Part shown: piece by piece, positions 29,571 through 51,187 of the stretch
Layout of the letters: each line of letters starts with the position of its first letter
How positions within the stretch are numbered: position 1 is the first letter of the stretch
NCBI RefSeq assembly: GCF_037042905.1
Contig: NC_087245.1
Location: 1,178,001 to 1,242,000 of the forward strand
Reading direction: 5' to 3'
Source of the DNA: Lytechinus pictus
Lineage: Eukaryota
DNA length: 64,000 nucleotides
The notes under the pieces: model-generated
What the model was told of the DNA's origin: nothing
What the model saw: only the letters and a program-made list of their open reading frames with translations
The model's database searches: none
Translations under genes and position numbers: made by a program

Positions 29571-30681
29571 GGCGCTAGTGTAGTTTCGCACCTCCCCGTT
29601 TAATGGTTTTCAAACATGTACAATCTCACCCTAAATAATTCACAACCTAAAATACTTGCATCTGAGCCTCCAAAGTCCAGTAGAAGTTGAATATTTGCCG
29701 TTTTGACACTTTTTTACAAAGTTTTACACCCATTTCGGAATCACTCGGTCGCTTGATCAAGCTCAGCGCTGCACATAAGCAGTCGGTACGCGTACAGTAC
29801 GTACCACCTAGTGAAGTGCAAGAAGAGCGAGTTTTTCTATGGTATCTTCAAAAAGATTTTTTCCCCTCTTTCAGCTTGCACCAAGTATTACGGTAGTGGT
29901 TGTGCAGAGTGGTTGATGTTTGTTGTGTGAAGGTATGTGTGTGTGGTGTGCGTGTGTGTGATTTTTTTAATGAAATAAGAAATGTGAATACAGTTGAAAG
30001 TTCTCTGACCTAGAGTTCAAAACAAGGCTCTACATTATTATTTCTTATTTCATCGCTAAATCTACGTGTATTCACATTTTTCACATTTCTTATTTCATTC
30101 AAACAAGCACACACACGCACACCCCACACACACCTTCACACAACAAACATCAACCACTCTGCACAACCACTACCGTAATACTTGGTGCAAGCTGAAAGAG
30201 GGGAAAAAAATATTTTTGAAGATACCATAGAAAAACTCGCTCTTCTTGCACAACTGGGCGTTGTGGCGTGCGCCTGTAATCCAAGCTACGTGGGGAAGTT
30301 ACAAATTGATGCAGAGGTTCGAACCCTGGTCACGTCTTTCGGATGGTGACGTTAAAGGTCGGTCCCAGACGTAAATAATCATATCTCATTGATACACGTC
30401 TGACAAAACTCAAAATACACACACACTTCACTAGGTGGTACGTACTGTACGCGTACCGACTGCTTATGTGCAGCGCTGAGCTTGATCAAGCGACCGAGTG
30501 ATTCCGAAATACTCAAATAGGTGTAAAACTTTGAAAAAAAGTGTTAAAACGGCAAATATTCAACTTCTACTGGACTTTTTGGAGGCTCAGATGCAAGTAT
30601 TTTAGGTTGTGAATTATTTAGGGTGAGATTGTACATGTTTGAAAACCATTTAACGGGGAGGTGCGAAACTACACTAGCGCC
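29571..30681. mobile_element. Foldback/MITE with ~420-bp inverted arms and 8-bp TSD (Merlin- or MULE-like)
   Basis: Arms ggcgctagtgtagtttcgcacctcccc... and ...ggggaggtgcgaaactacactagcgcc; flanked by cttaaatc at 29563-29570 and 30682-30689. Confidence 0.88.
30252..30426 (+). mobile_element. SINE copy 1 with 7SL/Alu-domain-like head, Deu-like body, (CA)n tail
   Basis: actgggcgttgtggcgtgcgcctgtaatccaagctac...ggttcgaaccctgg...gtctttcggatggtgacgttaaaggtcggtcc...aaaatacacacacac; precisely interrupts one arm of a palindrome. Confidence 0.85.
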
Positions 30682-32328: not shown

Positions 32329-32520
32329 ACCAGGCGTTGTGGCGTGCGCCTGTAATCCAAGCTATGCGGGGAAGTTACAAATTGATGCAGAGGTTCGAGG
32401 TTCGAGCCCTGGTCACGTCTTTCGGTTGGTGACGTTAAAGGTCGTTCCCAGACGTAAATAATCATATCTGATTGATACACGTCTGACAAAACTCAAAATA
32501 CACACACACACATACACACA
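32329..32520 (+). mobile_element. SINE copy 2 (same family)
   Basis: accaggcgttgtggcgtgcgcctgtaatccaagctatgc...ggttcgagccctgg...(ca)n; near-identical to copies 1 and 3. Confidence 0.85.
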
Positions 32521-50812: not shown

Positions 50813-51015
50813 TATAATCCTGGCTATGACTCTTCCATGATTCAATTTTTTCTCTGTTGCCTCCGATACTTTTTGTTTGTATGATTTTATTCTGGAACTT
50901 ATGATATCTGTATTCCAAAATTTATCTGTGAGTTATTTATATTGATCGTCATGCATCTAAATTATTTGAACATGATTAACTGCATTAAAGTGTAAATTCT
51001 ACTCATTGTTATATT

Positions 51016-51187
51016 TGGGCGTTGTGGCGTGCGCCTGTAATCCAAGCTGTGGGGAAGTTACAAATTGATGCAGAGGATCGAGGTTCGAGCCCTGGTCACG
51101 TCTTTCGGATGGTGACGTTAAAGGTCGGTCCCAGACGTAAATAATCATATCTGATTGATACACGTCTGACAAAACTCAAATACACAC
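51016..51187 (+). mobile_element. SINE copy 3 (same family)
   Basis: tgggcgttgtggcgtgcgcctgtaatccaagctg...gaggatcgaggttcgagccctgg...aaatacacac. Confidence 0.85.

Follow-up and report, generated by a model that had tools for sequence, protein, structure and literature searches.

Short interspersed elements (SINEs) whose head derives from 7SL RNA, the RNA found in the signal recognition particle (SRP), have been reported only from supraprimates, hagfish and now shrew mole (PMC7245038, PMC13023118; here and below, statements on published elements refer to the passages of the cited articles that describe them). The question raised by the stretch of DNA studied here, a 64-kb window (C1:1178001-1242000) of an 812-Mb assembly of 368 contigs, is whether an invertebrate genome holds such a family as well. 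The window contains three plus-strand copies of one element of ~175-190 bp, which an earlier note, made from the letters of the window, had taken for an Alu-like SINE in a non-vertebrate host. The best explanation, to which we give high confidence and which includes the mechanism proposed below, is that the three copies are insertions of one composite sea urchin SINE family with a 7SL head. The host encodes bindin (PF02084; 236.7 and 53.1 bits in two adjacent exons of its assembly, 0 matches in 14 control genomes) and is therefore an echinoid, which agrees with the suggestion of a non-vertebrate genome. No Pfam match was obtained for the eight long open reading frames (ORFs) of the window. Among sequencing runs, those of one organism from many studies and one run of a second organism contained 0.64-0.91 of the sampled words, and runs labelled as sea urchin, echinoderm, seawater or marine metagenome contained small shares (0.18); we base no conclusion on them.

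The 26-nucleotide (nt) head word GGCGTTGTGGCGTGCGCCTGTAATCC is present exactly three times in the window, and so is a 27-nt word of the body, compared with 0 occurrences of either in 100 dinucleotide-preserving shuffles. Since the flanks of the three copies do not align to one another, the copies represent dispersed insertions and not a segmental duplication. Their near-identity and their limits are close to what had been described, and the start motif AC[CG]GGCG given for them is approximate only, the actual starts being ACTGGGCG, ACCAGGCG and TTTGGGCG.

The 7SL origin of the head, also part of the earlier description, was borne out by two comparisons. At permissive thresholds, the Rfam model Metazoa_SRP (RF00017) gave copy 1 a score of 32.3 bits (E 4.4e-7) over its positions 1-44 and copy 3 one of 22.1 bits (E 4e-4); at the Rfam gathering thresholds nothing was called in the window. 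The sole other sizeable Rfam match was mir-1268, which we take to be Alu-derived itself. The host assembly holds seven full-length SRP RNA genes (loci L001-L007, 272-283 bits), and the SINE head is identical to all of them over 27 consecutive nucleotides (nt 4-30), agreeing with each in 40-42 of 46-48 aligned columns (85-91%) and best with L007. In the covariance-model alignments the head pairs in helices 2, 3 and 4; a single pair is non-standard, and host 7SL has it too. Helix 2 is closed by ACU/AGU in the SINE and in the L007 gene versus ACC/GGU in the six other host genes, and both letters of the U3-A46 closing pair, common to the L007 paralog, are kept in 49 of 56 SINE heads. This seemingly compensatory pair therefore probably comes from an L007-like paralog, or it arose in parallel. 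The Alu-domain structure is thus kept, as had been proposed, but the "compensatory changes" seen in helix 3 relative to human 7SL were not born in the SINE, as the urchin 7SL genes are identical there. The differences in the head by which subfamilies can be told apart all fall into the loop of helix 4; they are ACG, ATG or AAG, an extra A and a 2-nt deletion, the last of which is carried by copy 3.

Homology to 7SL stops at nt 47, where the SINE continues from ...GGAAGT with TACAAATTG and 7SL with CGGGGTTGG. When the sequence after this point was compared with the whole host 7SL on both strands, the score of 17 equalled the level of shuffles (mean 16.9), 142-156 of 300 of which scored as high. 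The term "Alu-like" is therefore appropriate for nt 1-47 and not for the rest of the element, which has no 7SL likeness above shuffles. A second 7SL resemblance reported for copy 3 (GAGGATCG..GAGCCCTGG) did not hold, since it depends on a private T>A change at position 51077 that creates GAGGATCG (51073-51080) in one of 42 copies, where the family has GAGGTTCG. Judged from these alignments, nt 1-47 of the SINE clearly descend from host 7SL RNA, namely from its 5' Alu domain.

The family is dispersed genome-wide in approximately 1,350-1,400 copies, young and old ones both being present, and the abundance and near-identity of many copies expected from the window were confirmed. In the whole assembly, the head word had 1,347 matches with up to two mismatches (692 on the plus and 655 on the minus strand), seven of which are the SRP RNA genes, and a 41-nt tail word had 1,395 matches with up to three mismatches (701 plus, 694 minus), 745 of them exact; the reversed patterns used as controls gave 0 for both words. 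The 53% share of exact tail words corresponds to a per-site divergence of ~1.5% among the copies caught by the pattern. A BLAST-type search gave 41 scored matches, out of 1,620 first-look candidates, with 92-100% identity on many contigs. At the other end of the scale, divergence is 19-21% in the old copies L075 and L076, and a third copy, L090, is degenerate as well; because decayed 7SL heads persist in all three, the 7SL head is as old as the oldest family members found. The element is a short (<1 kb), interspersed and non-tandem repeat, as SINEBase describes SINEs (PMC3531059); some tandem dimers exist.

Three kinds of marks, namely target-site duplications (TSDs), 5' truncations and tandem dimers, point to retroposition mediated by a long interspersed element (LINE). 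Exact TSDs of at least 6 nt were found for 11 of 38 copies and of at least 8 nt for five of 38, as compared with 4.1% and 1.0%, respectively, in mismatched-flank controls, and some longer imperfect TSDs can be recognized by eye, for example at L032. On contig C1, 22 of 59 exact tail sites were judged by eye to have no exact head nearby; the 20 examined comprised 14 copies with mutated 7SL heads, six copies 5'-truncated at differing points and none with another type of head. The 5'-truncated copy L052 has a TSD seen by eye. Head-to-tail dimers arise where a copy directly follows the (CA)n of another (L009, L020, L054), and at many 5' junctions the preceding letters are AC or CAC, which fits priming on a CA tail. 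Further head-to-tail dimers, with matches ~190 bp apart, are located at C7:25357260, C4:9657048, C2:61992460 and C18:1364626 and recur in duplicated segments.

A spread mainly as passenger of larger repeats, or by segmental or tandem duplication, appears improbable to us, yet it would account for several observations. The SINE recurs at nearly the same position of one repeat family (window 30230-30252/30427-30470, which flanks copy 1, as well as L036 and L028) and of a second one (L013, L034, L035, L045). The flanks of these two repeat families read ...ctcgctcttcttgcac / cactaggtggtacgtactgtacgcg and ...gacacaagaatactaccata / gcaaaagaccgatcgatagctcatgaatattcat, with slightly different junctions, and such recurrent insertion sites could be due to target preference or to co-amplification. 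Moreover, a 2.5-kb tandem array at C1:22.736-22.744 Mb carries the SINE, as four exact tail words follow each other at a spacing of ~2.53 kb (C1:22736816-22744448), a copy upstream of an SRP gene was duplicated along with the SRP cluster on contig C10, and L009 and L010 have common flanks. On the other hand, the flanks of most of the 38 examined copies are unrelated, TSDs are enriched over the controls, and 5'-truncated copies are found in unrelated flanks. Where flanks are common, the junctions differ by a few nucleotides and have TSDs of their own (CACTTAA at L036), suggesting repeated insertion into a preferred target.

Beyond the head, the element of ~170 nt plus tail consists of a short linker, a B box, two hairpins, ACAAAACTCAAAT and a (CA)n tail that differs in length among copies. 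The stretch GGCGTTGTGG at SINE nt 5-14 corresponds to box A of 7SL, which Kojima defined for the human RNA as GGCGCGGTGG (PMC7245038). Box B of 7SL lies beyond nt 47 and is absent here, so that the tRNA-type B box GGTTCGAGCCC at approximately nt 64-74 of the family consensus presumably replaces it; a TTTT run is not present in the consensus. The B-box consensus of RNA polymerase III (Pol III) is GGTTCGANNCC, which GGTTCGAGCCC fits. Measured on copy L012, hairpin 1 has a folding energy of -8.1 kcal/mol (z -1.75) and the 3' hairpin one of -13.0 kcal/mol (z -3.37), values that were reached by 9 and 1 of 200 shuffles, respectively. A short and a long subtype exist, the 7-bp duplication GAGGTTCGAGGTTCGAG being present in 10 of 42 examined copies.

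The perfect tRNA-type B box of the body would equally be expected of an ordinary tRNA-derived SINE (SINE2) whose head resembles 7SL by chance, and all sea urchin SINEs named in the articles cited here are tRNA-derived (SINE2-1_SP, SINE2-2_SP, SINE2-6_SP, SP-4, SP-5, SP-6; PMC4758252). We regard this explanation as very unlikely, given that the identity of the head to host 7SL extends over 27 consecutive nucleotides, with the same start point and helix-2 closure. ARAGORN predicted 0 tRNAs in the window, and cmscan of copies 1 and 3 found no tRNA family at E<=10. A head closer to a tRNA than to SRP RNA had been named beforehand as the outcome that would speak against a 7SL origin; the best match proved to be the host SRP genes. 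It is hardly credible that, instead of a self-propagating family, we have before us truncated retropseudogenes of 7SL or one-off chimeras of RNA. Although the 7SL part is short and small RNAs do give rise to chimeric retrocopies through LINE enzymes, as known from the U6-L1 literature, this alternative is contradicted by the same 7SL/body junction at nt 47, fixed in more than 1,300 copies, by subfamilies with diagnostic changes (short and long; ACG, ATG or a deletion in the helix-4 loop) and by ages ranging from <1% to ~20% divergence.

Several results weigh against a composite SINE that is mobilized by a LINE and guided by its 7SL head. No exact TSD of at least 6 nt was found for 27 of the 38 copies, and the 47-nt overlap with 7SL is below the formal rule of SINEBase, which asks for at least 60% identity over at least 60 nt (PMC3531059). 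The folding stability of the whole element (z -0.04) and of isolated heads (z ~0) is at the level of shuffles, and when the head is folded in isolation, the structure of lowest energy is not that of Rfam. Genuine 5' ends of host 7SL behave in the same way, so that fold stability carries no argument either way. Pattern and profile searches and 12 reverse transcriptase ORFs did not reveal a LINE with a matching 3' end, and neither the 20 tail sites nor a profile of body and tail revealed a parent SINE with another head. The SRP9 domain (PF05486) had no match in an exon-wise search, from which absence of this small, intron-split gene does not follow. On the supporting side, an SRP14 exon was found in the host genome with 30.6 bits.

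With regard to the partner LINE, two patterns were used in which the letters immediately upstream had to differ from those of the SINE, one for the hairpin and one for the last 28 nt; of their 45 and 14 matches, respectively, nearly all are indel variants or 5'-truncated SINEs. The genome yielded more than 12,000 first-look candidates for the reverse transcriptase domain RVT_1, with many open frames of ~1,000-1,700 amino acids without stops, so that seemingly intact retroelements are numerous in it and each of them is a potential partner. For 12 intact-looking ORFs out of these candidates, the 3' regions had no match to the SINE at E<=10. A CA-rich stretch follows the reverse transcriptase ORF L106, but it bears no likeness to the SINE tail. 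With respect to the parent SINE, nhmmer with the profile of body and tail, run over 316 kb of genome sequence, detected nothing but family copies, including very old ones with decayed 7SL heads. As neither a partner LINE nor a parent SINE was found, both the partner and the chimeric origin of the family are putative.

According to the mechanism proposed here, Pol III would use box A together with the foreign box B to transcribe the SINE, as the motifs suggest. The 47-nt head would fold as the SRP Alu 5' domain and bind SRP9/14, which may bring the SINE RNA to ribosomes engaged in the synthesis of a LINE reverse transcriptase. The 3' hairpin and the (CA)n tail could then be used by the LINE enzyme for target-primed reverse transcription, with insertion probably often taking place at targets containing CA or AC and in the tails of earlier copies, giving rise to the dimers. 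In HeLa extracts, SRP9/14 associates with the 46-nt 5' Alu domain of the engineered sequence SA46, and in HeLa cells this domain is enough for efficient L1-driven retrotransposition (PMC11760393, preprint). The proposed mechanism gains weight from this; the limits of the urchin head are the same. As for the origin, nt 1-47 of 7SL RNA may have been joined to the 3' part of another retroposon RNA by template switching or recombination; by analogy with the hagfish element, for which the same has been proposed, it is most likely that the family began as such a 7SL/retroposon chimera.

The hagfish element, SINE1-1_EBu (Ebu1-1) of Eptatretus burgeri (Kojima 2020, PMC7245038), is similar to the urchin SINE in several respects. 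In both, the head is closest to the host's own 7SL, both families are young and of similar size (2,363 full-length copies in hagfish, ~1,350-1,400 here), and both have a non-L1 tail ending in a simple repeat, TSDs of variable length and a probable origin as chimeras. However, SINE1-1_EBu has retained 96 nt from the 5' end of 7SL and 44 nt from its 3' end and thus the whole Alu domain with 7SL's own boxes A and B, whereas the urchin SINE has only nt 1-47 of 7SL, a foreign tRNA-type B box and an invertebrate host. In addition, the partner RTE-2_EBu and the parent SINE2-1_EBu were identified for the hagfish element (PMC7245038), in contrast to the urchin counterparts.

The supraprimate families Alu, FLAM, B1 and Tu and the shrew-mole family Urop have in common with the urchin SINE a 7SL head that includes the 5' Alu domain with its UGUAAU turn, the part that binds SRP9/14 in the described families, and the presumed route of ribosome association (PMC13023118). 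These families retain both 7SL ends and are mobilized by L1 via an A-rich tail; Kosushkin et al. (2026), who added Urop, describe all of them as having arisen after a central deletion of ~183 nt with both ends kept (PMC13023118). The urchin SINE differs from Alu, B1, Tu and Urop by the absence of a 3' 7SL part, by its (CA)n tail and by its 3' hairpin. In having a 5' Alu domain of 46-47 nt as sole 7SL part it resembles the "mini-Alu" SA46, which, however, is an engineered human sequence with a Pol II promoter that is mobilized by L1 (PMC11760393), while the urchin elements form a natural family with presumed Pol III boxes. The tRNA-derived sea urchin SINEs (SINE2-n_SP, SP-4/SURF1, SP-5, SP-6) are from the same host group and similar in their SINE-like size, their B box and their probable mobilization by LINEs, but have tRNA heads; they are set apart from the 7SL-headed SINE here by their descriptions and not by their sequences (PMC4758252, PMC3531059).

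In the terms of a Repbase-style classification, the urchin element has the 7SL-derived 5' part of a SINE1 but lacks the retained 3' 7SL part of all described members, and its head is not recognizable as the tRNA that marks a SINE2. A 7SL SINE of an invertebrate was not described in the published literature among the matches listed. Compared with the published descriptions, the urchin family would be the only one keeping just the 5' Alu domain, and a catalogue entry in Repbase, Dfam or SINEBase could exist. We tentatively suggest that it may be a natural "mini-Alu" and, outside vertebrates, the first SINE with a 7SL head, in which a 47-nt domain, together with a non-L1 tail and a B box of foreign origin, would have been enough to found a family of ~1,400 copies and to sustain it for long. 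If this is true, access to ribosomes mediated by SRP9/14 would be a general entry to the machineries of LINEs of different clades and not a peculiarity of L1 in mammals.

Alu, of all human mobile elements the most abundant, is one of the 7SL-derived SINEs, and independent origins of such SINEs have been reported as extremely rare (PMC7245038, PMC13023118). With an echinoderm family, the 7SL SINEs would gain an origin outside vertebrates, and the SRP9/14 ribosome route could be put to a natural test with LINEs other than L1. Furthermore, young insertions could serve as markers in population and species studies of sea urchins.

Table 1. Position of the SINE copies and their parts. Positions refer to the window unless a locus is given; copy limits were set by the family consensus, and divergences are substitutions from the 167-nt consensus.
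Feature	Position	Strand	Description
SINE copy 1	30253..30426	+	short subtype with a single GAGGTTC unit; 1.8% from consensus
Copy 1, 7SL-derived head	30253..30299	+	helices 2, 3, 4 and UGUAAU turn of the Alu 5' domain; RF00017 model 1-44 and host SRP gene alignment
Copy 1, B-box-like motif GGTTCGAACCC	30316..30326	+	family consensus GGTTCGAGCCC; outside the 7SL-derived stretch
Copy 1, hairpin 1 (GTCAC...GTGAC)	30329..30350	+	energy measured on the consensus-like copy L012
Copy 1, 3' hairpin (CAGACGT...ACGTCTG)	30366..30402	+	candidate recognition element for the partner reverse transcriptase; measured on L012
Copy 1, end: ACAAAACTCAAA(A)T, then (CA)n tail	30403..30426	+	tail length variable; from the sequence
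SINE copy 2	32329..32520	+	long subtype, 7-bp duplication GAGGTTCGAGGTTCGAG; 3.0% from consensus; head 32329-32375
SINE copy 3	51014..51187	+	long subtype; 1.2% from consensus; head 51014-51058
SINE copies at C10 SRP cluster	L001:877-1049, L001:1289-1462, L005:1293-1466, L006:1314-1466		

The neighbourhoods of the host SRP genes showed further features. Six of the seven genes have a B-box-like motif, GGTTCGAGTC(C/T), 15-35 nt after the T-run terminator (L001:1815-1835 and the matching places in L002-L006), and because L001, L005 and L006 are tandem duplicates, these six genes represent four independent loci. In the SRP genes on C10 the motif forms a perfect T-arm-like hairpin, CCTGGTTCGAGTCCAGG, and the flanks around it differ between the SRP loci. 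The seventh gene, L007 (C12:4895279-4895577), is a variant paralog with the ACU/AGU closure of helix 2 and an altered helix-4 loop, and it is without the downstream motif. The motif could be a TFIIIC site or the remnant of a tRNA-like element; a downstream TFIIIC site is present in yeast SNR6. When the SINE body was compared with the 3' flanks of the SRP genes at the four loci, the common part was a B-box-like 11-14-mer only, and 9-48 of 500 shuffles scored as high. With the likeness confined to this 11-14-mer, we do not claim that the body originated from the 3' flank of an SRP gene.

An older, ~86%-identical SINE copy is located ~35 bp upstream of each of the three tandem SRP genes on C10 (~7.91-7.92 Mb). 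It lies within an upstream region that is conserved at other SRP loci (L003, L004: ccctcaataggacaataaa...tccttaatttcgc) and was duplicated together with the genes. This copy may go back to one insertion into the promoter of a Pol III gene or may be a hint of targeting.

Broken tails were seen at two unrelated loci, L096:1150-1240 and L085:2900-2970 (reverse strand), where the SINE tail ends at ...ACGTCTG(AC). What comes next is another repeat common to both loci, CAGYGGCGTA...GGGGGGGCAA.... Either another mobile element inserted there or a second chimera was formed.

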